In this document: positions 5,015-52,579 of the stretch, piece by piece | Layout: every line of letters begins with the position of its first letter | Numbering within the stretch: the stretch's first letter is position 1 | The notes under the pieces: generated by a model | Databases searched by the model: none | Seen by the model: only the letters and a program-made list of their open reading frames with translations | What the model was told of the DNA's origin: nothing | Source of the DNA: Armatimonadota bacterium | GTDB lineage: Bacteria > Armatimonadota > SYMT01 | Reading direction: 5' to 3' | Assembly: GCA_041690135.1 (NCBI GenBank) | Contig: JAWLHY010000005.1 | Span: 371,261-435,260, forward strand | Length of the DNA: 64,000 nt | Position numbers and translations under genes: made by a program

Positions 5015-6418
5015 ATGAGTGAGCGAGTGACGCGGCGGGAGTTGCTGGGCCAGGCGGGTCGCTCCGCGGCGACCGTGGGTGTGGTGGGTGTGGCGGGCGC
5101 GGTTACGGCCTCCGCGGCGCATGCCCAGGGTGCGGGCGGCGCACGTGAAGTGAAGAACGGCAAGCTCCAGGCGGCCCTGATTGGGTGCGGCGGCATGGGG
5201 CGCGGCAACATGAACAACTTGATCTCCCACAGGGGCGAGATCGTGGCCGTGTGCGACGTCGACTCCGAGAACATGGCGCGAGCCGCCGCCGATGCGGAGA
5301 AGCGCCAGGGACGCCGGCCGGCGGAGATCAAGGACTTCCGGAAGCTGCTGGAGCGGAAGGACATCGACGCGGTGATCATCGCCACGCCGGACCACTGGCA
5401 CGCGCTGCCCTTTATCTATGCGTGCGAGGCCGGCAAGGACATCCTGTGCGAAAAGCCGATCTCCCACAACATCGAGGAAGGGCGCGCCATGGTGGCCGCG
5501 GCCCGGAAGTACGGCCGGATCTGCCAGGTGAACACCTGGCAGCGCAGCAACAAGGACTTCGTGGACGCCGTCCACTACATCCGCTCCGGCAAGCTGGGCA
5601 AAGTGACCACGGTCCGCGCCTGGAAGACCGACTGGTTTTCGATGGGCAAGAACACGCCCCAACCGGTTCCCTCCAACCTGGACTGGGACTTCTACCTCGG
5701 TCCGGCGGAAAAGGTCCCCTATACCGGCAAGAACGGCCACTTTAACTGGCGCTGGTACTTCAACACCGCGGGCGGCAATACCGGCGACTGGGGCGTGCAT
5801 ATGATCGACATCGGGCTCCTCGCCATGAGCCCGGATACCGACCTGGTGATGCCGACGCACGTCTCCAGCTTCGGCGGCAAGTTCACCTCCGGGGCGGATG
5901 ACGACCGCACAACGCCCGACACCCAGGTGGCCATTTTCCAGTTCCCGGAGTTCGTGCTGCACTGGCAGACCGGTCGCCGCGGCCTGGAGTACGGCTACGG
6001 AAAGCACGTCCCGGCGGGGGATGGCGGTCCGAAGCGAGACGCCCAGGACATCCTGGATAACGGCACGGCCTTCATCGCCGCCGACGGGAAGAGCCTGGTC
6101 GTCTGGCGCGGCGGCTGGATGGTCCGGGACGCGCAGGGCAACGAGCTGCCGAAGGTTTACGACGAGAGCTTCCCCCACCACGACCACATGCGCGACTGGA
6201 TGGAGTGCATCCAATCCCGGAAGCAACCACGCAGCAACATCTACTCCATGTACCAGACCACGGCGGTCTGCCACCTGGCGAACGCCGCCTTCGTCTCCGG
6301 CGAAGTCGTCCGCTGGGACAAGGCCAAGGACGACATCGTCGGCAAAGCCGGCAAGAATACCCTCCCCTACGCCCGCGAATACCGCAAACCCTGGAAACTC
6401 CCCCTGCATCGGGGTTAG
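5015..6418 (+). CDS. Tat-exported Gfo/Idh/MocA oxidoreductase
   Basis: TRRELL Tat motif, IGCGGMG, IATPDHWH, CEKP, DWGVHMID. Confidence 0.92.
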   Translation: MSERVTRRELLGQAGRSAATVGVVGVAGAVTASAAHAQGAGGAREVKNGKLQAALIGCGGMGRGNMNNLISHRGEIVAVCDVDSENMARAAADAEKRQGRRPAEIKDFRKLLERKDIDAVIIATPDHWHALPFIYACEAGKDILCEKPISHNIEEGRAMVAAARKYGRICQVNTWQRSNKDFVDAVHYIRSGKLGKVTTVRAWKTDWFSMGKNTPQPVPSNLDWDFYLGPAEKVPYTGKNGHFNWRWYFNTAGGNTGDWGVHMIDIGLLAMSPDTDLVMPTHVSSFGGKFTSGADDDRTTPDTQVAIFQFPEFVLHWQTGRRGLEYGYGKHVPAGDGGPKRDAQDILDNGTAFIAADGKSLVVWRGGWMVRDAQGNELPKVYDESFPHHDHMRDWMECIQSRKQPRSNIYSMYQTTAVCHLANAAFVSGEVVRWDKAKDDIVGKAGKNTLPYAREYRKPWKLPLHRG

Positions 6419-6429
6419 GGGACACGGAT

Positions 6430-6876
6430 TCACCGCGGAGATGGCCCAAAGGGCACCCCAGGACGCAGAGCCGACGCAGAGGGGCGGAGAGGTTCTCGGG
6501 GCGGAGAATAGCAAGTTAGGTTCGCTGGGTCCAGTTCTGACTGAACGCTAAACTCAAGACGCCTTCTGCTCGCAACTGGCACCCTGAACAAACAGAGTGG
6601 GAAGCCGCTGGCGGCCACGCTCCAAGCGCAAGTAACGCTGGTGGCGTGGCCGCTTTCGTGCTTGGTCCCAAACTGGCGTGGACATGTTCACTAGGCAGCA
6701 CGTCGAAAAACTCCACCCCCTGAATTACTCGCGCTCCTCCGTCTTCTCAAGTCGCTTTCCGCGTGTTCTCACGCGGAAATAGAAGGTTCCTCAATTCCGC
6801 GATCTTGTGCAGCGCTCAGCCAATTCCCTCAATTTCCCCTCTGCGTCCCCTCTGCGCACTCTGCGTCTCTGCGGTT
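6430..6876. repeat. MITE/REP-like element with imperfect inverted ends of the ACCGCAGAGACGCAGAG family
   Basis: Left end caccgcggag..gacgcagag..gacgcagagggg. Right end ctctgcgtc..ctctgcgtctctgcggtt is the reverse complement of the same family. Confidence 0.55.
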
Positions 6877-7042
6877 GAGACTGCCGGGAGCCCACAGCGA
6901 GTTTCATTGCCGAGGGGGGCCGGGAACAGTGGAACGACGGACGCACTGACTACGGCTGCCCACGCTGTCGCCGGCCTGATTGCCGGAGAAGAAGACTCGC
7001 GTCCGCTCTTTCCATCCGGCGCGGGCGAAGGAGTGGAGATAC

Positions 7043-7549
7043 GTGCGGTACCAGCGATTCGGCAACCAGTACGTGCTGCGACTGATGCCTGGTGAAGAGG
7101 TGATGGCCACGTTGTGCGACTTCGTGGAGCGCGAAGAGATCCCCGGCGGCTACTTCGTGGCGTTCGGCGCGTTCGAGCGGGTCTGCCTGCAGTACTTCGA
7201 CATCCAGCAGAAGCAGTACCACGATAACCCCATCGATCGGCAGGTCGAGGTGGTGAGCCTGATGGGCAATATCGCCTGGCAGGACGCTCGCCCGAAGCTC
7301 CATATCCACGGAGCGTTTGGTGACGGACAGGCCAATACCTGTAGCGGACACGTTGCCTCGGGGATCGTCCGGCCCACCCTGGAGGTCTTCCTGACCCGGT
7401 TCGACGGCCAGGTGCGGCGTGAGAAGGATCGGGAGACCGGGCTGGACCTCCTCGCCCTGCCGCGCGATACCTCGGAACGCGACGGTCAGGAAACGGATGA
7501 GGAAAGCGAGTCGATCACCCTGACCGGCCTGGGGCCCTACAGCCCATAG
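7043..7549 (+). CDS. PPC/DUF296 domain protein
   Basis: LRLMPGEEV, EVVSLMGNI, LHIHG, SGHV, PTLEVF. AAGGAG precedes GTG 7043. Confidence 0.88.
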   Translation: MRYQRFGNQYVLRLMPGEEVMATLCDFVEREEIPGGYFVAFGAFERVCLQYFDIQQKQYHDNPIDRQVEVVSLMGNIAWQDARPKLHIHGAFGDGQANTCSGHVASGIVRPTLEVFLTRFDGQVRREKDRETGLDLLALPRDTSERDGQETDEESESITLTGLGPYSP

Positions 7550-40693: not shown

Positions 40694-42994
40694 TCACCTC
40701 TTGCCATTGTGGGGAGTGTCCCGCAACTTCAGTACGAAGGCATCCGGTTCCCCCTGGATCATGGGGTCCGTTACCCCATTGAAGGTCGTATCGAACGCGT
40801 TCCCGGTCGTCGGGAAATCGCTCGAGTTGGTGCGCCCCGTCACGTAGATGCCGCGGACATGATCCACGGCGATGGCAAGCCCCTCTTCGTTGTTGTTCCC
40901 CCCGAAAAAGCTCGAGTGGAGCAGCGCGGAGCCGTTGGCGTTCAGGCTCGTGACGTAGGCATCGCTGTGATCGCCGTTGAAGCTGGGGTCCACAGCGTTT
41001 GGCGTCGTCGGGAAATTCTCGGAATCGGTCCATCCCGTCATGTGAGCTCGACCGAGACGATCCACCGCAATCGCCAGGCCCAGTTCGCTGCCGCTGCTGC
41101 CTACATAGGTGGAATACACCAACGCCGTCCCGGCGAAGTTCAGTTTCGTCACGAACGCGTCGTTGGACCCGCCGTTGTAGACGGCATCGAAGGCGCCCGG
41201 AGTTGTCGGAAACGCCGCGCTGGCCCACCCGGTGACGTAGGCGTGTCCCAGTGGGTCGACCGCGATCCCGAAGCCCTGATCGAAGAACGGTCCGCCCAAA
41301 AAGGTCGAGTAAACGAGGGCCGTGCCGGTCGCATTCAGCTTCGTCACGAACGCATCCTGCTCAGATCCGTTGAGGCTCGTGGCAAAGGCGCCCGGGGTAA
41401 CGGGGAAGTCGGGGGATCGGGTGAACCCCGTAACAAAAGCCTGCTCGTTCCCGTCGAGGGCAATGCTCGTACCCGCTTCGGTCAGTTCGCCTACCAGGCT
41501 GCTGTCGGTGCCGCCCAGGTAAGTAGAGTAGACGAGCGCAGATCCGGTCGCATTCAACCGGGCGACGAATCCGTCGGTGATACCGGTGAGACTCGTGTCG
41601 AAGGCCCCGGTGGTCGTGGGGAAGTCCACGGACCCGGTGAACCCCGTCAAATACGCGTTCCCGGACCGATCCACGGCAATTCCCCGGCCTTCATCGGCAA
41701 CGCTGCCGCCCAGGTAAGTGGAATAGAGCAGGGCCGAGCCGTTCGCATTCAGCTTCGCAACGAATGCATCGTTGAGGCCGTTGAGGCTTTGATCGAACGC
41801 GCCCGGGGTGGTAGGGAAGTCGGCGGATCCGGTAAACCCCGTCACGTAGGCCCGGCCCGTGAAATCCACCGCAATCTCCAGCCCTTCTTCAGAGGCGCTG
41901 CCGCCCAGGTAAGTGGAGTAAAGCAGGGTCGAGCCGGCGGTGTTCAACTTACTCACAAACACCTCGGATCCCGCGTTGTATCCTGGGTCGAAAGCTCCCG
42001 GCGTGGCGGGGAAGTCTACCGAGTTGGTCGCGCCGGTCATATAGGCCCGTCCGGCCCGATCGACCGCGATCCCCTCCCCTTTATCCAGAGTGGTTCCACC
42101 CAGGAAAGTGGAGTAGCTCAGTACCGGGTCGATGACCAGGGGTCGGCCGGCATCATACTGCGCAACTTCGAACCCCACGTTCGGCTGGCTCTCCCGCGTG
42201 GCGGCTTCCGGGACGTGGTTATCGGCGGACGCGGCCGTCCCGGCGGGAAGCAGGAGGTAGCGGCCGGCCACCTCGCGGCGCACCCCCGCCACTTCCTGGT
42301 AGAGGCACGGCTTGCGCTGGCGGACCTTGCCGTCCGGAGTGTGCAGCACCAGATCGCCGCCGGGTTCCACTTCCAGCTTTTCCGCGCCGGCGAAAGAAAG
42401 CCGGATCTGCCCCGGATCGGCGCCGGGCGCGACCACGAAGTCATATTCCAGCTCGCGCTGGTTGCCGTAGTAGACCAGGTCCACGCCGGGATAGACGCCG
42501 GAGTAGCGCACCCGGCCATACGTCGGAATGTCGGTCCGCCACTGCTGCGGATCTCGACCCGTGAAGTAGTGGACTCGACCGGGCAGGGGCTCCGCCCCCG
42601 TGACCTGCGCTCGGGGCCGGGCTCCCTCCAGCTTCATGCGCAGGACGGTGGGCGGCTGAGTCGCCGTCGCGGCGCGGGGACGCTTCCCGCCGTGGCGCCG
42701 GCGAGCGCTCGCCGGGCGGCGGCGCGGCTGCAGGGCGAGCACGGCTTCGGTGTCGGTCAGGAACAGCGTATAACCGGGCCCGCGCGAGAGGAAGTGCACC
42801 TGCACGTCCGTCTGCCCCCGGTTGGCTTCGAAGCAGAGGGGCAGGCGTCCGTAGGCGGCCTCCATCTCTTCTCCGGTTGCCGTTCCCCGAGGGTGCGAGG
42901 TAGCGGGCTGGCCGGAGCCGGCGAGGGCACTCCCCAAGGCCAGGCCGGATAGTAGAACGACGGTGAGAGACGGGCTCCAACTGTGGGTCAGCAT
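40694..42994 (-). CDS. secreted SBBP-repeat (beta-propeller) protein
   Basis: Signal peptide, FEANRGQ, YPGVDLVYYG..LEYDFVVAPGADP, and repeated YSTYLGG..IAVD..AYVTG..DFPTT..DAFV.KLN. Confidence 0.9.
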   Translation of the reverse strand: MLTHSWSPSLTVVLLSGLALGSALAGSGQPATSHPRGTATGEEMEAAYGRLPLCFEANRGQTDVQVHFLSRGPGYTLFLTDTEAVLALQPRRRPASARRRHGGKRPRAATATQPPTVLRMKLEGARPRAQVTGAEPLPGRVHYFTGRDPQQWRTDIPTYGRVRYSGVYPGVDLVYYGNQRELEYDFVVAPGADPGQIRLSFAGAEKLEVEPGGDLVLHTPDGKVRQRKPCLYQEVAGVRREVAGRYLLLPAGTAASADNHVPEAATRESQPNVGFEVAQYDAGRPLVIDPVLSYSTFLGGTTLDKGEGIAVDRAGRAYMTGATNSVDFPATPGAFDPGYNAGSEVFVSKLNTAGSTLLYSTYLGGSASEEGLEIAVDFTGRAYVTGFTGSADFPTTPGAFDQSLNGLNDAFVAKLNANGSALLYSTYLGGSVADEGRGIAVDRSGNAYLTGFTGSVDFPTTTGAFDTSLTGITDGFVARLNATGSALVYSTYLGGTDSSLVGELTEAGTSIALDGNEQAFVTGFTRSPDFPVTPGAFATSLNGSEQDAFVTKLNATGTALVYSTFLGGPFFDQGFGIAVDPLGHAYVTGWASAAFPTTPGAFDAVYNGGSNDAFVTKLNFAGTALVYSTYVGSSGSELGLAIAVDRLGRAHMTGWTDSENFPTTPNAVDPSFNGDHSDAYVTSLNANGSALLHSSFFGGNNNEEGLAIAVDHVRGIYVTGRTNSSDFPTTGNAFDTTFNGVTDPMIQGEPDAFVLKLRDTPHNGKR

Positions 42995-43159
42995 AACTGG
43001 CCTCCCATTCTTCGCGAGAGAGGAGGGAGGCTGCGCGGGGCAGGACCAGCAAACCCGCCGGTTCTCGCCCGAACACCGGCTCCCCGTGCGCCCTGTTCCC
43101 GTTCGGAGGGGAGATGACACTCGTTTTGTTAGCCTGAGATGCTTTACAGGCGATGCTAC

Positions 43160-43560
43160 GAGCTGGCAGGCGGTGCTGATCGTCCACCACCGGCGTCGCC
43201 TCGGCGAAGGAGCGGCCCTTCACGCCGTCCACCTGCACCCGGATCTCGCCCACGCGCTGGGTGACGGCGTTGATGAGCAGTTTGCGCCCCCGGGGTACGA
43301 TCGCCACCACCGTGAACTCGCCGCGGTCCGGGGCTTCCAGCGCTACCAGGCGGTCCTTCGGCCAGACGGCCTAGCCTTCATCCGCCTTCCGCTGGCCAGG
43401 CGGGTACTTGTGGGGAACGTTGTCTCCCCGGTACGGGAGTGCAAAGCTGCCGTCCGGAAGCTCCAGAAGCTGTGGCGATACCCACACACAGCTGCCGTCC
43501 CACTGGCCGAACGCCTGCGTCTCCAGGAGAATCCCTCTGCAGGAGCGATTGCACGGGTTC
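43160..43560 (-). pseudogene. fragment of a glycoside-hydrolase-like (beta-propeller plus beta-sandwich) gene
   Basis: GQWDGSCV..LPYRG..PHKYP, an in-frame stop, then WPKDRLVALEA..GEFT..LLINA..GEIRV. Family assignment is tentative. Confidence 0.5.
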
Positions 43561-44824
43561 AACGCACATAGATTGGGTTGGAAAAGATCCAGGGTCGTAT
43601 TGTTGCGGCTGGGTTCTTGAGGAGATCCGAGAGACGCCGCACCTGCCCGCGGCGCAATCGTTCCAGGCGGCTGGGGGGATTCTCCTGGGCGTAGACTTCA
43701 ATCCGGTACGCGCCGGGGGTGGTCACCGTCCACTCCAGGCGTTGCCCTTCCGCAACCGTTACTTCCTGGCCGTTGCGGAGTAGACGGATAATCGGGCGAG
43801 GGTGATCCGGGGCCTCCACCTGGAAACGCGCACGCTGTTCCAGGCGCAAGGGTTGCCCCATGATCGCTTGGCGCGCGCCCTCCGTCGCCGTGAAGCGGAA
43901 CCCCGGAGCGGGGGCCACGCGGGGGTAGACGGCGTAGACCCGGCCGTTGCGATACGCATCGTAGATCAGGCGCCGATCCGTTTCGAGGTTCCCCGTCAGC
44001 GCCTGCGGTGTGATGGCATAGGTGCTCACCGACTCAAAGCTCTCCCCGTAGGTGGGTACGCGCAGCACTCGGCCGGCAAGGGGCACCCGCTCGTGGGCGT
44101 CCACGCCGCCGATGCCGACGATCTGTCGTCCGGAGGCCAGCAAGCGGTCCCACTGCTTCCTCTCGCGCTCGACGTCATTGTTGGTGAGGGTCTTCATCAC
44201 ACTGTCGGGGTTGGAGGCGTACCGCTGCGCGAGTTGCAAGAGCCGACGCACGCTCCGGTCCTGGAGCCGCAGTCCGTGCTGCGCGGCCATCAGATCGTCA
44301 TCGACGAGGCTGGCGAGATTGATGATCTCCATGCCCGCGTAACCCTTCACGGACCAGTCTTGCCAGAGCCAGCGTGGCGCCATGGGGTGGGCCAGCAAGG
44401 TGAAGCCGCCCGCGGCGCTGACGCGATCGATCACCTGTTGGGCCTGGTCCGTCTCGAAGGAGAAGCTTTCGGGCAGATCCAGCGCGAGCACATGTCCGGC
44501 ATCCGTGCTGATCTCCGTGCCGACCAGGACCAACAGGTCGCCCCAATAACGCTGATGTCCGTCCTTGAGAGGCTCCAGCGTATTATGGTCCGTGACGATG
44601 ATGTAACTCAGTCCCGCGGCGCGGGCGGCTTCTACGACCTGGGGGAAGGTGCCGCTGCCGTCGGAATACTGGGTGTGAATGTGGACCGCTCCTCGATAGT
44701 GATAGTACTGGGGCGCAACCTGGTTTTGCCCGGCGGCATGCGTGCCGGTGAGGGTAAGAGCGCCGGTAAGCCCCAGGGCCACCACTGAAAGCCGGAAGCG
44801 GAACCGATTGTAGAGAGAATTCAT
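43559..44824 (-). CDS. secreted PHP-family (CehA/McbA-like) metallohydrolase
   Basis: HIHTQYSDG, VTDHN, GTEIS..GH, LAHP, GGVDAH, FSNPIYV. Confidence 0.87.
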   Translation of the reverse strand: MNSLYNRFRFRLSVVALGLTGALTLTGTHAAGQNQVAPQYYHYRGAVHIHTQYSDGSGTFPQVVEAARAAGLSYIIVTDHNTLEPLKDGHQRYWGDLLVLVGTEISTDAGHVLALDLPESFSFETDQAQQVIDRVSAAGGFTLLAHPMAPRWLWQDWSVKGYAGMEIINLASLVDDDLMAAQHGLRLQDRSVRRLLQLAQRYASNPDSVMKTLTNNDVERERKQWDRLLASGRQIVGIGGVDAHERVPLAGRVLRVPTYGESFESVSTYAITPQALTGNLETDRRLIYDAYRNGRVYAVYPRVAPAPGFRFTATEGARQAIMGQPLRLEQRARFQVEAPDHPRPIIRLLRNGQEVTVAEGQRLEWTVTTPGAYRIEVYAQENPPSRLERLRRGQVRRLSDLLKNPAATIRPWIFSNPIYVR

Positions 44825-45357
44825 GCGAGTGCCCGCCGGCAGCGTCGAGAGGAATTGTCCGCTCAGTTTGTCGTATTCCCCATGCTCCTCCAGGTAAACC
44901 CCTCCGGCCGGTGCGGCGGTCTTAGAAACAAACACCGCAAAAGACCCTCTCGACAGGCACCGTATAGGACCGGGGGTGTGCGGTATAGGGGCAAGCAGCG
45001 CCAACGTTGCCACGCCGTGGACCCTCTTGCCTCGCGCCTTCGCTGCACGGGCGGTCGATATCCACGTCTACCAGGGCGACGTTCTTGTGTTGTGGGGCGT
45101 GAACTATGACCAGGGCACGCCAGAACCGCTCCGAGAGTCCCTCCGGGCCGGTTTGGAGGTGGCGGACAACTCGCGGATTGCGATCGATCCGCAGGATCCC
45201 CGGCACGCTAGTCTCAAGGAGAACCTCCGGATTGAGGTGGAGTACCTGGGCGCCGTGAAGACCGATCAACTCCGGTTGACCCGGAATCGCCATCCGATCG
45301 GGAGTGGTTCCTGGCGCCGGGCGGGTGTTGTATGTGTGGGACCTCCACCCGGGATTA

Positions 45358-45525
45358 CTACACGAACTCTAGCCCGAAGAGCTTCGCCCGGGCCATCCGG
45401 AACCGCAGGACGAGCGGCCCTCCGGGGCGTGGCCCAGATCGTTGTTGCCGCTCCAGTCCAGTCGCAGGCGGTGCTGGTCGCCGACCACCGGCGTCGCCTC
45501 GGCGATGGAGCGGCCCTTGAGTGCC
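45358..45525 (-). pseudogene. C-terminal fragment of the same gene family as 43160-43560
   Basis: KGRSIAEATPVVGDQHRL..W, a frameshift, then LRFRMARAKLFGLEFV-stop. Shares 51/55 nt with 43166-43220. Confidence 0.55.
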
Positions 45526-45755
45526 GGAACGCCTCTGCCCCACACGCAGGGACCTTGGTCAAGTTTTCTCCGCGCGTGTGCCGCTTCCTAATCTGCCGGT
45601 GCCGGTCAAAGCTGCTCTTCCTTCCTGCGACTAAACGGCAATGCAGCGGACTCGCCCCATAGGTGAATCGGCGCTCATTCGGCTTCCCACGGCTCCTGCC
45701 CTTTCGTTCCGCGTCCTTCCGTGTGTTCCGCGGGCAAGAGGTTCTGGGATTCGGT

Positions 45756-47141
45756 TTATGGTTCCCAGACCATCCGGAAGCGTGGCCCCTGCTCGCCTTC
45801 CTGCCGAAAGCCAAGGCGTTCGTAGAAAGCACAGGCCGGGTTCACTTTCAGCACCTGGGTGGTCACGCGGCGGTGGCTGGCCCGGGCCCGGCTCTGAAGC
45901 TCCCGGACGATTGCCGTGCCCAGGCCGCGACCCTGGAAGGCCGGGAGGAGGTGCAGGTTCGCCAGGTGCAGCTCCGCTTCGCGCTCCAGCACGCTCACCG
46001 CCCCCGCGAGCTCCGGGCCGGTGGTGATGAGCCGGTGGCGCATCACGTCGAAGCGCGCCAGGAAAGGGCTTTGCTCTTCCGCCGGCATCTCAAGCGCGTC
46101 GAGTGAGCCCTGCAAGGTCTCGCGGCGGAGGCGATAGATGAACCCATAGTCCCGCATCGCGGCCGGTCGGAAGTGAAACTCCAGCGTGCCGGCGCTCCGG
46201 ATCTCCGGCGCGAACGAGGTCTCCCGGTGCTCCAGCAGCCGATAGCTCGTCACCGGTTTCGCTTCCGGCGTGCCGCAGGTGAGCCCGCGCAGCCCCTCCA
46301 ACTCCACCGGCTCCACCCGCAGGGTGTGAAGCGTGTCCTCCCCATCCGCCCCATCCGCCAGGAACGCAGCTTCGGTCACCGTGCCCCGCCGGCGGTGGGA
46401 CCAGAGCCGGTACGCGGCGACGCGGGTTTCTGCCTGGGCCTGCCGCAAGTAATGCTCGGCTGCCTGTGAGGGCGGTGGATAGCAGGCGCGCCCGCGCCAC
46501 CGGGACGGGTACAGCCGCCCCGTCGTCGCGCACTCCAGAAACGCCGCGTGTTCTTCCGGTTCCACGTGCCCGTAGTAGAGCCCCTCCGGAAGACAGACGA
46601 CGTTGGCGGCGAAGCGGTCGCCCCCCACGTGGGACGACTGCCACACGCGGTTCGACTCACTCCGCGCCAGGCTGAGGTAGGTGGGATAGCCGAACTTCGC
46701 GCAGCAGCGGTCGTGCGTGCCGTGGGTGCAGACCAGGAAGAGCGGGCGCGGGTCGCGGTAAGCCTCGTAGCGCTCCTCTTCCGCCAGCACGCCGAACAGG
46801 TCGATCCCCAGCAGGGCCTCGTAGCTCTCCAGTTCGAAGTGGTAGAGGCGCGAGGCGACCTCGTCGGTGACCGCTACGTAGAAGGCGAGCGTCTCCCGCT
46901 GTCCACGCGGCGCTCCCTTGATGAACAACAGGCGGGAGCGAGGTACCGCCTGGAGCACGGGCTGCAGGGCTCGCCCCAGGGTACTGCCGGCCTCGATCGT
47001 GGCCTCCACCTCGTGCGCCCAGGCCCCCCGTACTTCCAGCACCAGCCACAGGTCCACCCGCGAGGCGGTCCCGAACAGGGGCTCCCCCACCCGGCGCGCC
47101 CCGGAAGCGCAAAGCTCCAGTGGTTGCGGTCGGCTAGGCAT
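45756..47141 (-). CDS. sucrase/ferredoxin-like (thioredoxin-fold 2Fe-2S) protein fused to a GNAT acetyltransferase
   Basis: EPLFGTA..WLVLE..GAW, LVCTHGTHDRCCA, WQSSHVGGDRFAAN..LP.G.YYG, WRGR; C-terminal LHLLPAFQGRGLGT..NPACAFYERLGF. Start overlaps the JmjC stop. Confidence 0.88.
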   Translation of the reverse strand: MPSRPQPLELCASGARRVGEPLFGTASRVDLWLVLEVRGAWAHEVEATIEAGSTLGRALQPVLQAVPRSRLLFIKGAPRGQRETLAFYVAVTDEVASRLYHFELESYEALLGIDLFGVLAEEERYEAYRDPRPLFLVCTHGTHDRCCAKFGYPTYLSLARSESNRVWQSSHVGGDRFAANVVCLPEGLYYGHVEPEEHAAFLECATTGRLYPSRWRGRACYPPPSQAAEHYLRQAQAETRVAAYRLWSHRRRGTVTEAAFLADGADGEDTLHTLRVEPVELEGLRGLTCGTPEAKPVTSYRLLEHRETSFAPEIRSAGTLEFHFRPAAMRDYGFIYRLRRETLQGSLDALEMPAEEQSPFLARFDVMRHRLITTGPELAGAVSVLEREAELHLANLHLLPAFQGRGLGTAIVRELQSRARASHRRVTTQVLKVNPACAFYERLGFRQEGEQGPRFRMVWEP

Positions 47142-48339
47142 AACCGAGGAGCCCTTCCCGCAGCAGGCGCCGGACCAGGACCAGCTTTCCGGGTGTATCC
47201 AGCTCATCGGGAAGGTCGGCGGCGCGGAAGGGCTCGGTCCGGGTGCAGAAGGCCACGGAAGCGGCGGCGTAGCCCGGCAACTCCACGGCCTTGCCCTGGA
47301 AAGTGAGCCGCACGCGCTCCCCCTCCGCGCGCAGGCGGAAGAGCACCTCGGGCCGGCGTCGTACCGGGGTGCCGAGATCCAGCTCCGCGAGCTTTTCCGC
47401 GACAAACAGCCGCTCGCCGCTGATCGGCCGGCGCGTGTTGATGAACCGGTCGATCATCCGGTCTACGGCGCGGAGGGCCGCTTCGGGCTGGGTGAGCTCC
47501 GCCGCCAGTTCCGCCAGTTCGGCAGCCAGGGCGGTGCGGTGCTCTTCCGAGGCGGCAAACCCGGGCGGCAGGTTTCGGCGGAACCGCGCGTCGTCCCGGC
47601 ATCCGGCGATTGCCTCGGCGAGCAGGTCCAGCCAGGTGAAGCCGGTCATTCCCAGCGTGACGTGGATCGACCGCTGCCGGGAAGTGAGCGCCTCGTGGAT
47701 GAAGCCGCGCGGCAGGTAGAGGAGGTCGCCCGGTCCCAGGTCCAGCTCGCACAGCAACTGCCCCGCGGGAGCGCCTTCGGACCGGTACCCCTGGGTGCGG
47801 TCCGGCAGCGGGACGGGAGAGTCATACAGGCGCCAGTGCTTGGAGCCGTCGATCTGCAAGATGAACACGTCGTGCGTGTCGTAGTGCGGTGCGAAGCCCT
47901 GCGACTCCGGGGGCGTGACGTAGATGTTGGTCTGGGTGGGATGCGTGAGGACCGCCTCCAGGCTGCGGCACAGCGTGGCGAGCGGAGGCCAACTGCGGTG
48001 CAGACCCTGAAGGATCACGGTCGCGCCGTTCCGGTACTGCTCCACGATGCGGTCCGGGTCCGCCACGCGGCGGCAGGCGCTCCCCGTGCCGGCGGTGGTC
48101 TTCGTGTAATCTGAGAGCGGGAGCGGTTCCCCGGAACGGACGAGCCGGAACTCCGGGTAAGTCATGTCCGAGGTAGTGACCAGCCGGTCGACATCGCCCG
48201 GGGTGAGTAGTGCCTGGTAGTGGTCGGGAACTCCCCGCTGGAGCACGAGTGGCTGCGTCTCCCAGTACTCCTGTAGGAATACCGGGAGCGGCACCGGCGC
48301 CAGCAATCGCTCCAGCGTGAACGCATCGGATGAGGTCAT
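47134..48339 (-). CDS. JmjC/cupin_4 Fe(II)/2-oxoglutarate-dependent hydroxylase (ROX-like)
   Basis: FLQEYWETQPL, NIYVTPP..QGFAPHYDTHDVFILQIDGSKHW, LGPGDLLYLPRGFIHEA (HxD..H triad), C-terminal LVRRLLREGLL. Confidence 0.92.
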   Translation of the reverse strand: MTSSDAFTLERLLAPVPLPVFLQEYWETQPLVLQRGVPDHYQALLTPGDVDRLVTTSDMTYPEFRLVRSGEPLPLSDYTKTTAGTGSACRRVADPDRIVEQYRNGATVILQGLHRSWPPLATLCRSLEAVLTHPTQTNIYVTPPESQGFAPHYDTHDVFILQIDGSKHWRLYDSPVPLPDRTQGYRSEGAPAGQLLCELDLGPGDLLYLPRGFIHEALTSRQRSIHVTLGMTGFTWLDLLAEAIAGCRDDARFRRNLPPGFAASEEHRTALAAELAELAAELTQPEAALRAVDRMIDRFINTRRPISGERLFVAEKLAELDLGTPVRRRPEVLFRLRAEGERVRLTFQGKAVELPGYAAASVAFCTRTEPFRAADLPDELDTPGKLVLVRRLLREGLLGYA

Positions 48340-48350
48340 GGCAGGGTGAC

Positions 48351-48387
48351 AAATAGAAAGCCGCGAGAGCCCGGTGGGCGCCCGCGG
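48351..48387 (-). terminator. GC-rich hairpin plus U-rich tail between the peptide gene and the JmjC gene
   Basis: Minus strand reads ccgcgggcgccc-acc-gggctctcgcgg followed by ctttctattt. Confidence 0.6.
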
Positions 48388-48414
48388 TCTGGGTGTGGTA
48401 GTGAACGGGCGGGG

Positions 48415-48630
48415 CTACTGGTCCCCTTTGCTATCCGTGGTGTCCGCGTCGCCCGAGCCGTCCGTGCCGTCCGCGTCCGTCCCGTCCGCGTCGCTACCGT
48501 CCTTACCGTCAGTGCTGTCCGCATCGGTGCCGTCCGCATCCCACGCCGCGTACGGCCGGGCGCCGGGAAGCACCGCGCTGTTCACGCGCGTCACGATGAT
48601 GTCGTCGTCGGTGAGAGTATGAGAGGGCAT
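48415..48630 (-). CDS. 71-aa Asp/Gly-rich repeat peptide, putative RiPP precursor
   Basis: GGAG RBS. 30-aa leader-like part with LTDDDI, then a 41-aa core containing 15 Asp and five DADxT units. First gene of the operon. Confidence 0.8.
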   Translation of the reverse strand: MPSHTLTDDDIIVTRVNSAVLPGARPYAAWDADGTDADSTDGKDGSDADGTDADGTDGSGDADTTDSKGDQ

Positions 48631-48978
48631 CCGAGGTTCTCCTGGGCTTGAGCGTTCAACCGCCCGTGTGTCTCTTGTAGACTACCCCGGCTAACTGGGT
48701 CCATAAAAGCGACTTTTCGCGCCGCGAGACCCGACTCGTCGTTTCATCGGGCACTCCAACGTAGGGCATGAGACAGACCCGACTAGGGCCACCCCCACCC
48801 GGTCATCGGAGTTTGGCGCATCGCCGCGGCGGGGAACTACGCCCTGGAACCGGAGCAGGTTTCCGCACAACCGCGGAGTTGAGTCGGATCCAAATGGGTT
48901 CAGGGGCTGAAGACAACACGTTTCCCTGTTAGGCCTCGCACCAGCCGTCTCCACTACTTGCACGAAAGAGGGCGAACC

Positions 48979-49923
48979 ATGGTCTGGGTTCCCGGCGGCA
49001 CGTTCGTGATGGGATCGAACGATTTCTATCCCGAAGAGCGGCCTGCCCACCGGGTGACCGTGGACGGCTTCTGGATGGATGAGCATCCGGTGACGAACGC
49101 CGAGTTTCGACGGTTTATCGCCGCCACCGGATACGTCACCGTGGCGGAAAGGCCACCGGACCCCGAACATTATCCAAGCGCCGACCCGGCATTGTTAGTG
49201 GCCGGCTCTCTCGTTTTCCGGCGACCGCCCGCGCGTGTCGGCCTGCGAGATTTCCGCAACTGGTGGGTCTACGTGCCCGATGCTTGCTGGAGACACCCGC
49301 AGGGGCCCGGAAGCACCCTGGAAGGTTACGACCTCCACCCCGTAACGCAGGTGGCTTACGAAGACGCGGAGGCCTACGCGTACTGGGCCGGCAAGGCCCT
49401 GCCGACGGAGGCGGAGTGGGAATTCGCGGCCCGAGGGGGGCTGGAAGAGGCGGATTTCGTCTGGGGGCATGAGCATGCGCCGGAAGGTCGCATGCTTGCC
49501 AACACATGGCAGGGCGAGTTTCCCTGGCAGAACCTCAACCTCGACGGGTACGCGGGCACCTCGCCGGCCGGCGCTTTCCCCCCGAACGGGTACGGGCTGT
49601 ACGACATGGCCGGCAACGTGTGGGAGTGGACCAGCGACATTTTCACGCCGCGCCACCCGGCGGAAGTCTCGAAGCCGTGCTGCATCCCCCGCAACCCGCG
49701 GGTCGAGGCGGCGGAGCGGGACCCGGCGCCGGGGGCGACCGGGGGCGCCGTCCTGCGCCGGGTGCTTAAGGGTGGATCGCATCTCTGCTCGCCCAACTAC
49801 TGTCTGCGCTACCGGCCGGCGGCGCGTCAGGGAGAAGCGGTGGATACCTCGGCATGCCACATCGGCTTCCGCTGCATCGTGCGATCGGACGTGGCAGCAG
49901 CCAGGAGCGGAGGTGCGAGCTGA
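48979..49923 (+). CDS. formylglycine-generating enzyme (sulfatase-modifying factor)
   Basis: FVMGS..YPEE.PAH, LPTEAEWEFAARGG, DMAGNVWEW, KGGSHLCSPNYCLRYRPAAR, IGFRC. Confidence 0.92.
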   Translation: MVWVPGGTFVMGSNDFYPEERPAHRVTVDGFWMDEHPVTNAEFRRFIAATGYVTVAERPPDPEHYPSADPALLVAGSLVFRRPPARVGLRDFRNWWVYVPDACWRHPQGPGSTLEGYDLHPVTQVAYEDAEAYAYWAGKALPTEAEWEFAARGGLEEADFVWGHEHAPEGRMLANTWQGEFPWQNLNLDGYAGTSPAGAFPPNGYGLYDMAGNVWEWTSDIFTPRHPAEVSKPCCIPRNPRVEAAERDPAPGATGGAVLRRVLKGGSHLCSPNYCLRYRPAARQGEAVDTSACHIGFRCIVRSDVAAARSGGAS

Positions 49924-49927
49924 ACCC

Positions 49928-50830
49928 ATGGTTGAGCTTCTGGCCCCTCTGCTGAACCTCTCGATCCAGGTCTTCGCCGTGAGCAGCATGCTGGCGGTCG
50001 GCCTCAACTACACGGTCCGCCAGATCATCGACCCCCTTCGGGACGTGCGCGGGGTGATCCTGGCGCTTTTCGCCAACTTCGTGGCGGTTCCGCTGCTGGC
50101 GTACGCGGTGGCGCGCTGGCTCTCGCTCGACCGGTCCATGGAACTGGGCCTGGTCCTGGTGGCGTTTGCCGCGGGAGCGCCGTTCGTGATCAAACTGGTG
50201 CAGTTGGCCGGTGGCACCGTGGCGTTCAGTTCCGGCCTGCTCGTCCTCCTGCTGCTGGTCACCATCCCCTATCTGCCCCTGGTAATGCCGCTAGCCATCC
50301 CGGACGCTACGGTCCACCCGGCCGGCATCGCCCGGCCGCTCCTACTAACGATGCTTCTGCCGCTCGGCGCCGGCCTGCTCGTCAAGGCGATGTCCCCCGG
50401 CTGGGCCGGGCGCCTGCAGCCGCTTCTGGGGAAGATCGCCAACGTGACGCTGGTGTTACTGCTGGCTCTGACCTTCATTGTCCATCTCCCTGCCATCCTG
50501 AGCGTCTTCGGGACCGGCGCCATCCTGGCCGCGCTGCTCGTCCTCGCCGGCTCCTTCGCCCTGGGCTACCTGTTCGGAGGCTTCGGAGAGCACCTACGCG
50601 ACGAGATGGCCCTGGTCACCGCCCAGCGCAACTTTGCGGCGGCCCTGGTCGTGGCGGAGAGCCTCAACGACCCGGAGACGGTGGTGATGGTCGCGGTGGT
50701 CTCGGCGGTTTCGATCGCGCTCCTTTTTCCGCTGGCGGGAGCCATGGGCAGGCGGGTCGCAACCACGTCCGCACCAGAGAAGGAAAGTTCGAGAGCACCG
50801 CGACTGGGGCGTAGACGAGCGGCCTCGTGA
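49928..50830 (+). CDS. bile acid:sodium symporter family transporter
   Basis: SSMLAVGL, LFANFVAVPLLA, AAGAPF, AQRNFAAALVVA; multiple TM segments. Confidence 0.85.
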   Translation: MVELLAPLLNLSIQVFAVSSMLAVGLNYTVRQIIDPLRDVRGVILALFANFVAVPLLAYAVARWLSLDRSMELGLVLVAFAAGAPFVIKLVQLAGGTVAFSSGLLVLLLLVTIPYLPLVMPLAIPDATVHPAGIARPLLLTMLLPLGAGLLVKAMSPGWAGRLQPLLGKIANVTLVLLLALTFIVHLPAILSVFGTGAILAALLVLAGSFALGYLFGGFGEHLRDEMALVTAQRNFAAALVVAESLNDPETVVMVAVVSAVSIALLFPLAGAMGRRVATTSAPEKESSRAPRLGRRRAAS

Positions 50831-50866
50831 CCCAGACGCCGACTCTTCCCAAGACACGCAACTCAA

Positions 50867-52579
50867 ATGGAGGACCCGATGGCCAACCATCAGAACGGCA
50901 CACCCGCCGCGGAGCGGCCGAACATCCTGATCCTGTGCATGGACCAGTGGGATACCCACATGCAGGTGCCCGAGGAAGTGCGGTTTCCCGCAATGGAGCG
51001 GCTGGAGGCGCAGGGGGTCTCCTTCGACCGGCACTACTGCACCGTCCCGATCTGCACTCCTTCGCGGGCGGCGATGTGGACGGGAGTCCATGCCCGGCAC
51101 ACCGGGCTTTGGGATAACACCAACTACGCCTGGATCGACGAGCTGTCCCACGAGTTCCCCACCCTCGGACAGATGCTCCGCGAGCAGGGTTACTACACCG
51201 CCTTCAAGGGCAAATGGCACCTGTCGGCGGTCCCCCGCAGTGAGGACGCACTGGAGCGCTACGGCTTCGCGGACTTTCAACAGTGGGGCGAGATGTTCGG
51301 GGCACCGCTCCAGGGAGAGCAACTCGACGGCGTCGCCGCGTTTGAGACGATCGACTGGCTCGAGCACCGGGCGCAGCAACTCGACCAGCCGTGGCTATTG
51401 GTGTGCAGCCTGGTGAATCCGCACGACGTGATGTTCCTGCAAACCGACCCGATGCAGGAGCCCCATCCAAATGGTATGATCACGGGCCTCCATTCAACCG
51501 TCCAGCAGTTAGGCTGGTTTCAGCAGGAGTGGGAGGTGACGCTGCCGGGCAACTTCGCGGACGACTACCGGTTGCAGGCGCCGGGCGTGCGGCACTTCAA
51601 AGACTATGTGGACCTCCATTTCGGGCGCATTCCCGACGAGCGCGCGGACCTCTGGCTCAAGCACCGCAACTACCTCATCAACTGCATGCGCCTGGTGGAC
51701 GCGCAGTTCGCGAAGGTGCTGGACGCGCTGGATCGCCTGGACCTCTGGGAAAACACCGTCGTCATCTTTACCAGCGACCACGGAGAGATGAACGGCGCCC
51801 ACCGAATGACCCAGAAGGGCGGCATTCCCTTTGACGAAGCGGCCGTCGTTAACCTGTCCGTCTGCGCGCCGGGTGGCCCGCGGGGCCGGCGCACCGGTGC
51901 AGTGGGCTCCCACCTCGACCTCGCGCCAACCTTACTGGAGTTTGCCGGCCTCGGCGAGCAGGAGATCCGGGAGCGCTACCCGCACCTGAAGGGCCGCAGT
52001 CTGAAAAGCGTGATCCTCGCCCCGGACCAGGACGGTCCCCGCGGAAGCATGACATCACCCGGCGATGGAGCGTTGCTCTGCTGGGACGGGCTGCACGCGC
52101 TGGACCACGAATGGGCGGTCACCGGCGCGCTCCGGGAGCTCACGGACATGAGCCTGCAAGAAGCCGAGCCCGCAGTCCACCGGGAGGCGCACCGACGAGA
52201 CCGGCTGCAGGCGGCCGGGAAGAAGTATGGCGCCCCCGACTTCCGCAAACGCACGTTCTTCCGCGCCGTGGTGGACGGGCAGTACAAGCTGGTCCGTTGG
52301 TTTAGCCCGGAGGAATACGGCAACCCCTCCACCCTGGAAGAGTTGTTCGCGCGGGGGGATGTAACGCTCCACGATTTGGAAACCGACCCCGGCGAGTTGG
52401 AGAACCTGGGGCATCCCGATCACCCGGCTTACGACCCGGTGCTGGTAGAGCGGATGCTGGCCAAACTGCACGCCCTCGTCCAGGAAGAGCTCGGTGAAGA
52501 CCGTGCACCCTTTGACCTGGACCTGTTCGGCACCCGTGAAGTGAAGTACCGCCAGGGGGAACGGCGCCGGGCAGCGTGA
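50867..52579 (+). CDS. Cys-type sulfatase
   Basis: RPNILILCMDQ, CTPSRAAMWTG, KGKWHLS, NPHD, FTSDHGEM. The start may be ATG 50879. Confidence 0.92.
   Translation: MEDPMANHQNGTPAAERPNILILCMDQWDTHMQVPEEVRFPAMERLEAQGVSFDRHYCTVPICTPSRAAMWTGVHARHTGLWDNTNYAWIDELSHEFPTLGQMLREQGYYTAFKGKWHLSAVPRSEDALERYGFADFQQWGEMFGAPLQGEQLDGVAAFETIDWLEHRAQQLDQPWLLVCSLVNPHDVMFLQTDPMQEPHPNGMITGLHSTVQQLGWFQQEWEVTLPGNFADDYRLQAPGVRHFKDYVDLHFGRIPDERADLWLKHRNYLINCMRLVDAQFAKVLDALDRLDLWENTVVIFTSDHGEMNGAHRMTQKGGIPFDEAAVVNLSVCAPGGPRGRRTGAVGSHLDLAPTLLEFAGLGEQEIRERYPHLKGRSLKSVILAPDQDGPRGSMTSPGDGALLCWDGLHALDHEWAVTGALRELTDMSLQEAEPAVHREAHRRDRLQAAGKKYGAPDFRKRTFFRAVVDGQYKLVRWFSPEEYGNPSTLEELFARGDVTLHDLETDPGELENLGHPDHPAYDPVLVERMLAKLHALVQEELGEDRAPFDLDLFGTREVKYRQGERRRAA

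Follow-up and report, generated by a model that had tools for sequence, protein, structure and literature searches.

The three-gene locus and its small open reading frame

The analysis concerned a 64,000-nt stretch of DNA (the window) from an Armatimonadota bacterium (GenBank assembly GCA_041690135.1, contig JAWLHY010000005.1, positions 371,261 to 435,260) and, within it, three tightly packed genes on the minus strand between positions 45756 and 48630. They encode, in this order, a 71-aa Asp-rich peptide, a JmjC-type Fe(II)/2-oxoglutarate oxygenase and a fusion of a sucrase/ferredoxin-like (Suc_Fer-like) domain with a GNAT acetyltransferase domain. The N-terminus of the peptide carries a short tag that recurs across phyla in open reading frames (ORFs) directly upstream of genes for the same oxygenase family. 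The whole suggests that modified peptides are made by a widespread, undescribed system, resembling peptides synthesized on ribosomes and modified after translation (RiPPs) and using a JmjC protein as the tailoring enzyme. In what follows the 9.1-Mb genome carrying the window is called G000, an Armatimonadota relative is called G005 and the fetched JmjC loci have L-numbers.

The initial annotation of the window had described a three-gene minus-strand arrangement with a 71-aa Asp-rich peptide, a JmjC protein with its HxD...H residues, an overlapping Suc_Fer/GNAT gene and a hairpin, and each of these elements was located as listed below.

48415-48630, minus strand: peptide gene, an ORF of 71 aa with an ATG start, stop codon included
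48639-48643, minus strand: Shine-Dalgarno-like AGGAG, read from the sequence, 8 nt ahead of the peptide ATG
48589-48618, minus strand: leader-like motif TLTDDDIIVT, peptide residues 5-14 (match to the motif model with E 0.00069; conserved positions)
48418-48540, minus strand: Asp-rich repeat tail, peptide residues 31-71, with DADGT-like units and a Lys-containing C-terminus (15-nt period, 34% Asp)
48361-48387, minus strand: stem-loop between the peptide and JmjC genes, with a U-rich run after it at 48350-48360
47134-48339, minus strand: JmjC_2 Fe(II)/2-oxoglutarate oxygenase of the ribosomal-oxygenase type, 401 aa (Pfam JmjC_2)
47137-47481, minus strand: C-terminal domain of the JmjC protein, about 115 residues, putatively winged-helix-like and a candidate for peptide binding
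46491-47141, minus strand: start of the third gene and Suc_Fer-like (thioredoxin-like ferredoxin) domain (Pfam Suc_Fer-like, 1.4e-20)
46242-46490, minus strand: conserved stretch of residues 218-300 that follows the ferredoxin-like domain and includes the invariant C289 (alignment of homologues)
45756-46241, minus strand: C-terminal GNAT acetyltransferase domain, stop codon included (Pfam GNAT families)

The peptide gene is separated from the JmjC gene by 75 nt. The ATG of the third gene (47139-47141) lies inside ATGCCTAG and overlaps the JmjC stop codon, and the overlap of the two genes is 8 nt in both G000 and G005. The stem-loop at 48361-48387 has a centroid energy of -20.8 kcal/mol and a z-score of only -0.89 against shuffled sequences, so that the hairpin of the initial annotation exists but is not distinctive in this GC-rich DNA. 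A stem-loop is found at the corresponding place in G005 (centroid -26, z -1.49) and, behind the stop codon of the peptide gene, in four of six further loci (L007, L014, L048 with z -2.71, and L065), with none in L066; the element recurs but is statistically weak. A promoter and terminator scan gave no sigma-70-like promoter and terminator-like sites no commoner than in shuffled sequences, and no Rfam family matched positions 43000-50000.

The 71-aa ORF is a real gene. It is preceded by a Shine-Dalgarno site, its GC content at the three codon positions (0.67/0.54/0.85) follows that of the JmjC gene (0.72/0.49/0.86) in a pattern not displayed by the overlapping frames, and the comparison with G005 revealed 34 identical, 18 synonymous and 12 non-synonymous codons. 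Of 8,000 candidates scored in public data, gene-called relatives of this type of peptide account for 499 protein clusters at E <= 0.01; every one is labelled hypothetical and none contains a Pfam domain. The tail is encoded by a tandem repeat (Tandem Repeats Finder: 15-nt period, 5.3 copies, 48459-48541) corresponding to the DADGT-like units, and residues 31-71 consist of Asp in 34%. Several frames are open across the repeats, on one strand as on the other, as might be expected if the small ORF were a chance open frame over GC-rich repetitive DNA, but the ribosome-binding site, the codon-position GC, the excess of synonymous changes, the cross-phylum conservation of the non-repetitive N-terminus and the 499 gene-called relatives make such an origin of the ORF extremely improbable.

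Neither Pfam nor NCBIfam contains a model that matches any of the tag-bearing peptides, models of twin-arginine signals excepted, and the window peptide is absent from the ESM Atlas. A tblastn search with the window peptide returned G000 and G005 only, because the tails are too divergent, and a hidden Markov model (HMM) of the N-terminal motif was therefore used.

The N-terminal tag and its linkage to JmjC genes

The tag, with the approximate consensus [ST]-L-x-D-[DE]-x-I-x-T, was found in ORFs located directly upstream of JmjC genes. A pattern scan of one genome per species gave 573 confirmed relatives of the JmjC protein; the best 80 loci of the 573 were retained and, together with G005, constitute the 81 loci, all outside G000, used for the survey of upstream ORFs. 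The leader HMM of 14 columns was built from 44 upstream ORFs chosen by a simple pattern and was run against 1.64 million residues of six-frame ORFs of at least 20 aa from the window and all 81 loci. The best off-target match had an E value of 0.95, and all matches better than this lie directly upstream of JmjC: they comprise the window peptide (E 0.00069) and ORFs on the same strand as the JmjC gene in 45 of the 81 loci, representing at least eight phyla, although the search is partly circular, most of the matches being training sequences. Two more loci have weaker matches at the equivalent position. Loci outside the training set were also recovered (L036 and L023, and L063 weakly), and in the whole G000 genome the window peptide was the sole credible match (E 0.0056).

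A tag restricted to the region upstream of one enzyme family and joined to a variable repeat tail would best be read as the leader of a guided substrate. As in RiPP systems, a short precursor-like gene is placed beside a modifying enzyme, and a conserved leader precedes a variable core. The initial annotation had regarded the peptide as RiPP-like, had suggested searching for D-rich ORFs near JmjC homologues and had named the lack of a conserved peptide at such loci as a refuting outcome; with tagged ORFs at 45 of 81 loci the opposite was observed, and the leader-like N-terminus and the variable Asp-rich tail agree with a RiPP precursor. Its remark that neither a peptidase nor an exporter is adjacent held for the window. 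Trios of an Asp-rich peptide, a cupin and a sucrase-ferredoxin, which it had mentioned for actinobacteria, were indeed present in Gaiellaceae, Acidimicrobiia and Cellulomonas and, outside that phylum, in Chloroflexota.

The JmjC protein was assigned to Pfam JmjC_2 (PF08007; 2.1e-28, 98.9 bits vs a cut-off of 22), with an additional match to Cupin_8 (3.9e-06). The triad H152, D154 and H215 (HxD...H) and K167, which we take to be the 2-oxoglutarate-binding Lys of the family, are invariant in 65 homologues, and with these residues intact the enzyme looks active. Its relatives in the PDB are MINA53 (6.5e-29), NO66 (4.4e-28) and YcfD (1.8e-9), the last one a weak match limited to the core, and the 'Cupin 4 family protein' 4csw was aligned over the full length (JmjC residues 13-399). 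The family is large, with 1,931 cluster representatives at E <= 1e-30, and many databases label its members L16 Arg81 hydroxylase.

Two main types of tagged peptide were distinguished. Type A has a short linker, a tail rich in D, T and S and no hydrophobic stretch; it is carried by the window, G005, the Chloroflexota locus L007, six Gaiellaceae loci and seven loci of Acidimicrobiia or other Actinomycetota. L6, D8 and I11 of the motif are invariant in 14 type-A peptides and in 20 peptides of the Armatimonadota lineage. The window peptide contains neither an RR motif nor a hydrophobic stretch, the features sought as a twin-arginine translocation (Tat) signal. Type B, present in Acidobacteriota, Alpha- and Gammaproteobacteria and Myxococcota, is marked by RR in 23 of 23 peptides, a hydrophobic stretch and an Ala-rich end, followed by repeats, e.g. 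of the DPDKK or TDSDTG type. Lipoprotein-like signals were seen in the Bacteroidota peptides. In the Streptomycetaceae clade the leader-motif ORFs (L038, L041, L082) have short D-rich tails and are found near ATP-binding cassette (ABC) exporter genes.

In all 48 tails Asp, and no other residue, is enriched (median 25.6%, minimum 8.6%, among the four most frequent residues in every tail); it occurs mostly as D-x-D units, the tails otherwise varying between clades. On a FastTree phylogeny of the JmjC proteins the Tat-type character required 4 changes and the Suc_Fer-type character 5, vs means of 21 and 13 after shuffling. The peptide types cluster on the JmjC tree, i.e. enzyme and peptide co-vary. 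A comparison of the charge of JmjC proteins by peptide type gave no informative difference. The clade-specific solutions for export point to a product rather than a subunit.

Several loci of the survey have features of their own. In Acidobacteriota and relatives (L019, L021, L031, L036, L050, L060, L067, L076 and others) tagged proteins of 90-170 aa combine the leader motif with an RRSFL-type, twin-arginine-like signal and many DPDKK-type repeats; their ORFs lie approximately 100-650 nt upstream of JmjC and no family model matches them. On the Streptomyces clavuligerus plasmid pSCL4 (L084, 3704-11242) a RefSeq hypothetical protein of 48 aa with the tag and a D-P-rich tail directly precedes the cupin/JmjC gene, which is followed by a convergent S9 peptidase gene and then by an ABC transporter; a helix-turn-helix (HTH) regulator is also encoded in the locus. 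The pSCL4 locus looks like a complete small biosynthetic cluster. The S9 peptidase and the HTH regulator were ruled out as core parts of the system, as they were not found in the other 81 loci. In a Rubrobacter metagenome-assembled genome (MAG) and a related MAG (L005 1-161, L006 1-121) an ORF of Gly-rich repeats, each unit containing Asp, lies upstream of JmjC; it is cut off by the contig end, so that the N-terminus is not included. Finally, a proteobacterial JmjC clade (L020, L026, L027, L028, L035, L055, L075; JmjC mostly at about 6001-7190) has no leader-motif ORF and is encoded directly after a TonB-dependent receptor gene, which might connect it, by way of another substrate, with the uptake of metal.

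The Suc_Fer-like/GNAT protein and the surroundings of the trio

The longest ORF of the third gene (45756-47405) starts with TTG and encodes 549 aa, but all homologues start at the ATG at 47141, which gives a protein of 461 aa. It is composed of the Suc_Fer-like domain (PF06999; 1.4e-20, 74.6 bits vs a cut-off of 34.9), a conserved extension of about 80 residues and the GNAT domain. The extension (residues 218-300) belongs to no Pfam family and was aligned in 16 of 16 JmjC-adjacent homologues. C138, C146, C147, H171 and C289 are invariant in 53 of 53 homologues and C11 is present in 51 of them. The cluster motif of the sucrase/ferredoxin-like family is given as CX8C...HX3H (PMC8482512). C138-X8-C147 and H171 of this motif are conserved; position 175, corresponding to its second His, is Asp in the window and in 39 of 53 homologues, and His in 14.

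The GNAT domain was recognized by Acetyltransf_1 (6.9e-10, 39.7 bits vs 20.7), Acetyltransf_7 (9e-10, 39.2 vs 27) and Acetyltransf_10 (35.9 vs 23.6). It has a weak match to RimI and, in the PDB, to the PA2271 acetyltransferase (2.2e-4), and no NCBIfam equivalog reached its cut-off. The fusion was limited to G000, G005 and 17 related clusters from metagenomes. Several of these clusters lie on contigs equal in length to those of JmjC and peptide matches, so that the three genes may be together there. A Lys in the C-terminal tail is conserved in 17 of 18 peptides of the GNAT-fusion lineage, and there is no Lys at all in the tails of 12 other type-A peptides. This conserved Lys is a candidate site of acetylation.

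A Suc_Fer-like gene adjoins JmjC in 15 of the 80 fetched loci and in G005. Its carriers form a clade of Actinomycetota, Chloroflexota and Armatimonadota, and the peptide of the locus is always of the D/T/S-rich, signal-less type A, save for one locus with the upstream region cut off. In the six Gaiellaceae loci (L010, L018, L023, L029, L042, L047) the Suc_Fer-like gene is convergent with JmjC and not co-directional, the trio being still adjacent, and the stop codon of the peptide gene abuts or overlaps the JmjC start. The pair of peptide and JmjC genes is distributed far more widely than the trio and mostly occurs without a ferredoxin-like gene.

The closest homologues are labelled Armatimonadota, and the JmjC gene was found in 2 of 41 related genomes, G000 included. 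The flanks differ: genes for a PHP-domain protein, a formylglycine-generating enzyme and a sulfatase are found in G000 vs genes for a multihaem cytochrome and a WD40 protein in G005. Since the flanks differ and the occurrence is limited to 2 of 41 genomes, the trio was classified as an accessory, self-contained module. No other neighbour is conserved across the clades in the JmjC loci surveyed. The genes for the formylglycine-generating enzyme (FGE-sulfatase, 5e-81) and the sulfatase (3.6e-44) occupy 48958-52579 on the plus strand, divergent from the trio, and are regarded as unrelated to it because G005 is flanked by other genes. On the other side, the PHP-domain gene (43559-45013) is flanked by a 55-nt direct repeat (43166-43220 and 45464-45518, 93% identical), present in these two copies only in the 9.1-Mb genome. 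An 808-aa protein with DUF7948 and SBBP beta-propeller repeats is encoded at 40694-43120 on the minus strand.

Interpretation and comparison with known systems

The explanation that we favour, with a little more confidence than doubt, is that the 71-aa peptide would be a ribosomally made, leader-guided substrate of the adjacent JmjC hydroxylase, with Asp as the most likely target. From the arrangement of the genes and the conserved residues we infer how binding, modification and metal might be connected. Motif residues 5-14 would serve as the recognition sequence by which the peptide docks, probably to the winged-helix-like domain at the C-terminus of the enzyme, and the Fe(II)/2-oxoglutarate JmjC core would then hydroxylate several residues of the tail, most likely the Asp residues of the D-x-D units, to beta-hydroxy-Asp. 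Asp is proposed as the target since no other residue is shared by all tails. A metal-chelating peptide of strongly acidic character would result. The Suc_Fer-like domain, whose gene is translationally coupled, may act as a [2Fe-2S]-type redox partner that keeps the iron of the oxygenase reduced or handles iron bound to the product. In the Armatimonadota-type lineage only, the GNAT domain may acetylate the peptide, possibly at the conserved Lys near the C-terminus. The window version may act inside the cell, since it has no export signal or exporter and has a ferredoxin-like partner instead, and the export signals and exporters of other clades would fit a released product.

A bolder form of this explanation is possible, but we hold it with considerable doubt. 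The peptides would then form a large undescribed class in which Asp repeats are converted into poly-beta-hydroxy-Asp chelators by a dedicated JmjC branch, with a universal tag guiding the enzyme. In Gram-negative bacteria the tag would be placed in the n-region of a twin-arginine signal and the product would leave by the Tat route; in Actinomycetota, Chloroflexota and Armatimonadota the product would stay in the cell, with a dedicated [2Fe-2S] protein taking part in iron handling.

Several observations weigh against the proposed leader-guided hydroxylation or parts of it. No motif ORF was found in 34 of the 81 loci, 5 of these having a truncated upstream region. Neither the window nor G005 has an adjacent leader peptidase or exporter gene, and the window peptide lacks a signal peptide. 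The C-terminal domain expected to bind the leader was not matched by Pfam when the domains were searched alone, and a profile of 51 homologues found only 4csw (residues 301-400) with a weak E value of 0.076. Twin-arginine HMMs matched only 3 and 4 of the 23 type-B peptides, so that their assignment to the Tat route relies mainly on a reading of the motif. Sharing between tails is the sole ground for the choice of Asp, and in clades whose units are of the DPDKK type the modified residue could be Lys or Pro instead. With Asp at position 175, binding of a [2Fe-2S] cluster by the Suc_Fer-like domain is not assured. The co-occurrence of Lys and GNAT represents a single lineage event and is not independent evidence. 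In Gaiellaceae the abutting genes suggest that peptide and enzyme are made in approximately equal amounts, as would suit a partner protein no less than a product.

The peptide could be a substrate of the JmjC enzyme in a different chemistry. Thr or Ser might be hydroxylated here, and Lys or Pro where the tails are of the DPDKK type, or the oxidation might go further and cleave or cross-link the peptide or turn Asp into another residue, with the Suc_Fer-like protein possibly acting as a second enzyme. We consider this rather unlikely, but it has precedents. The JmjC enzymes of RiPP pathways described so far in the cited articles hydroxylate Phe (CzlI, PMC11575548) and ornithine (BipG, PMC12707348) and not Asp, and a two-step conversion of Asp to aminomalonate via hydroxy-Asp is reported for another RiPP (PMC12186529). 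The tails also differ strongly between clades, and in the Suc_Fer-like protein five Cys/His residues are invariant and an extra domain is conserved. Against this, Asp is the sole residue enriched in all 48 tails, the type-A tails are nearly devoid of Lys and Pro, and many type-B repeat units are devoid of Thr and Ser. Less likely still is a partner role for the acidic protein, as a regulator or inhibitor of the oxygenase, as a chaperone delivering iron to it or as a mimic of its true substrate, with the enzyme itself modifying a ribosomal or other cellular protein. Such a role would agree with the ribosomal oxygenases being the closest solved relatives, with the L16 Arg81 hydroxylase label, with the equimolar synthesis suggested by the Gaiellaceae genes and with the missing peptidase and exporter in the window. 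It is harder to reconcile with the accessory nature of the gene (2 of 41 related genomes), not expected of a housekeeping modifier of ribosomes, with the weak, core-limited match to YcfD (1.8e-9), with the export signals or ABC exporters of the peptides in other clades, which would be needless for a cytoplasmic regulator, and with tails evolving as variable repeats behind a fixed N-terminal tag.

Improbable, in our estimate, is a small acidic Ca2+- or metal-binding protein that stays unmodified and is merely co-regulated with the oxygenase and the ferredoxin-like protein, e.g. under metal or oxygen stress. The D-x-D-G-x-D units resemble what we take to be calcium-binding loop motifs, and the position of a related JmjC clade behind TonB-dependent receptor genes hints at a metal link, but a tag exclusive to ORFs upstream of genes for this family is difficult to account for unless the two proteins interact directly. 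The leader-guided substrate of the JmjC enzyme remains the explanation that we prefer.

If this explanation is true, the peptides represent a new, widespread family of ribosomal, enzyme-modified peptides with a simple two-gene core. A function would be provided for a large branch of bacterial JmjC ribosomal oxygenases, now labelled L16 Arg81 hydroxylase or cupin, as well as the first functional context for bacterial sucrase/ferredoxin-like proteins, and a new coupling of cytoplasmic peptide modification to Tat export would be suggested. Genome mining could start directly from the fixed N-terminal tag, and culturable carriers, Cellulomonas humilata BE332 with the trio and S. clavuligerus pSCL4 with the version including a peptidase and an exporter, make the hypothesis testable. 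Neither the peptide family nor the pairing of JmjC and peptide genes nor a link between JmjC and Suc_Fer-like proteins was found described in the literature searched, in Pfam or in NCBIfam, and in the literature searched no function is described for any bacterial member of the sucrase/ferredoxin-like family.

The ribosomal oxygenases (YcfD/RoxA, NO66 and MINA53; PDB 4lit, 4ccm, 2xdv and 4csw) share with the window enzyme the JmjC_2 family, the HxD...H residues and the overall length. They hydroxylate Arg or His of ribosomal proteins and, to our knowledge, are not encoded beside a dedicated small ORF, whereas the JmjC clade of the window is accessory (2 of 41 relatives) and linked to a tagged peptide gene. 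Bufferins, reported by Leprevost et al. in 2024, are said to be ribosomal metallophores that bear a signal peptide, are modified in the cytoplasm, exported by means of that signal and bind metal; they differ from the present peptides in the enzyme, which is a multinuclear non-haem iron-dependent oxidase (MNIO), in the modified residues, which are Cys, and in the type of signal.

Among RiPP pathways, JmjC hydroxylases acting on precursors are known from curacozole (CzlI, PMC11575548) and biphenomycin (BipG, PMC12707348), and PF08007 JmjC proteins with domains resembling RiPP recognition elements, with bacterial homologues in RiPP-like contexts, have been described (PMC12710340). CzlI and BipG are similar to the window enzyme in being Fe(II)/2-oxoglutarate JmjC proteins encoded beside a short precursor gene and hydroxylating a residue of the precursor, but they modify one Phe or one ornithine and belong to multi-enzyme clusters. 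The module of the window has a repetitive Asp-rich putative substrate, two or three genes and a new leader motif. The beta-hydroxy-Asp proposed here as the product is made in other ribosomal peptides by CinX, CanE, HEXXH enzymes and an MNIO domain (PMC12636437). These belong to the canonical 2-oxoglutarate-dependent, HEXXH and MNIO families and act on a single Asp, none being reported on Asp repeats.

The Suc_Fer-like proteins, finally, resemble the thioredoxin-like [2Fe-2S] ferredoxins Aim32 and Apd1 with regard to the family and the invariant CX8C and first His. The JmjC-linked proteins differ from them in the replacement of the second His by Asp (39 of 53), in the extra invariant C11 (51 of 53), C146 and C289 and in the extension of about 80 residues; they are further distinguished by the linkage to JmjC genes and, in the lineage of G000 and G005, by the fusion with the GNAT domain.

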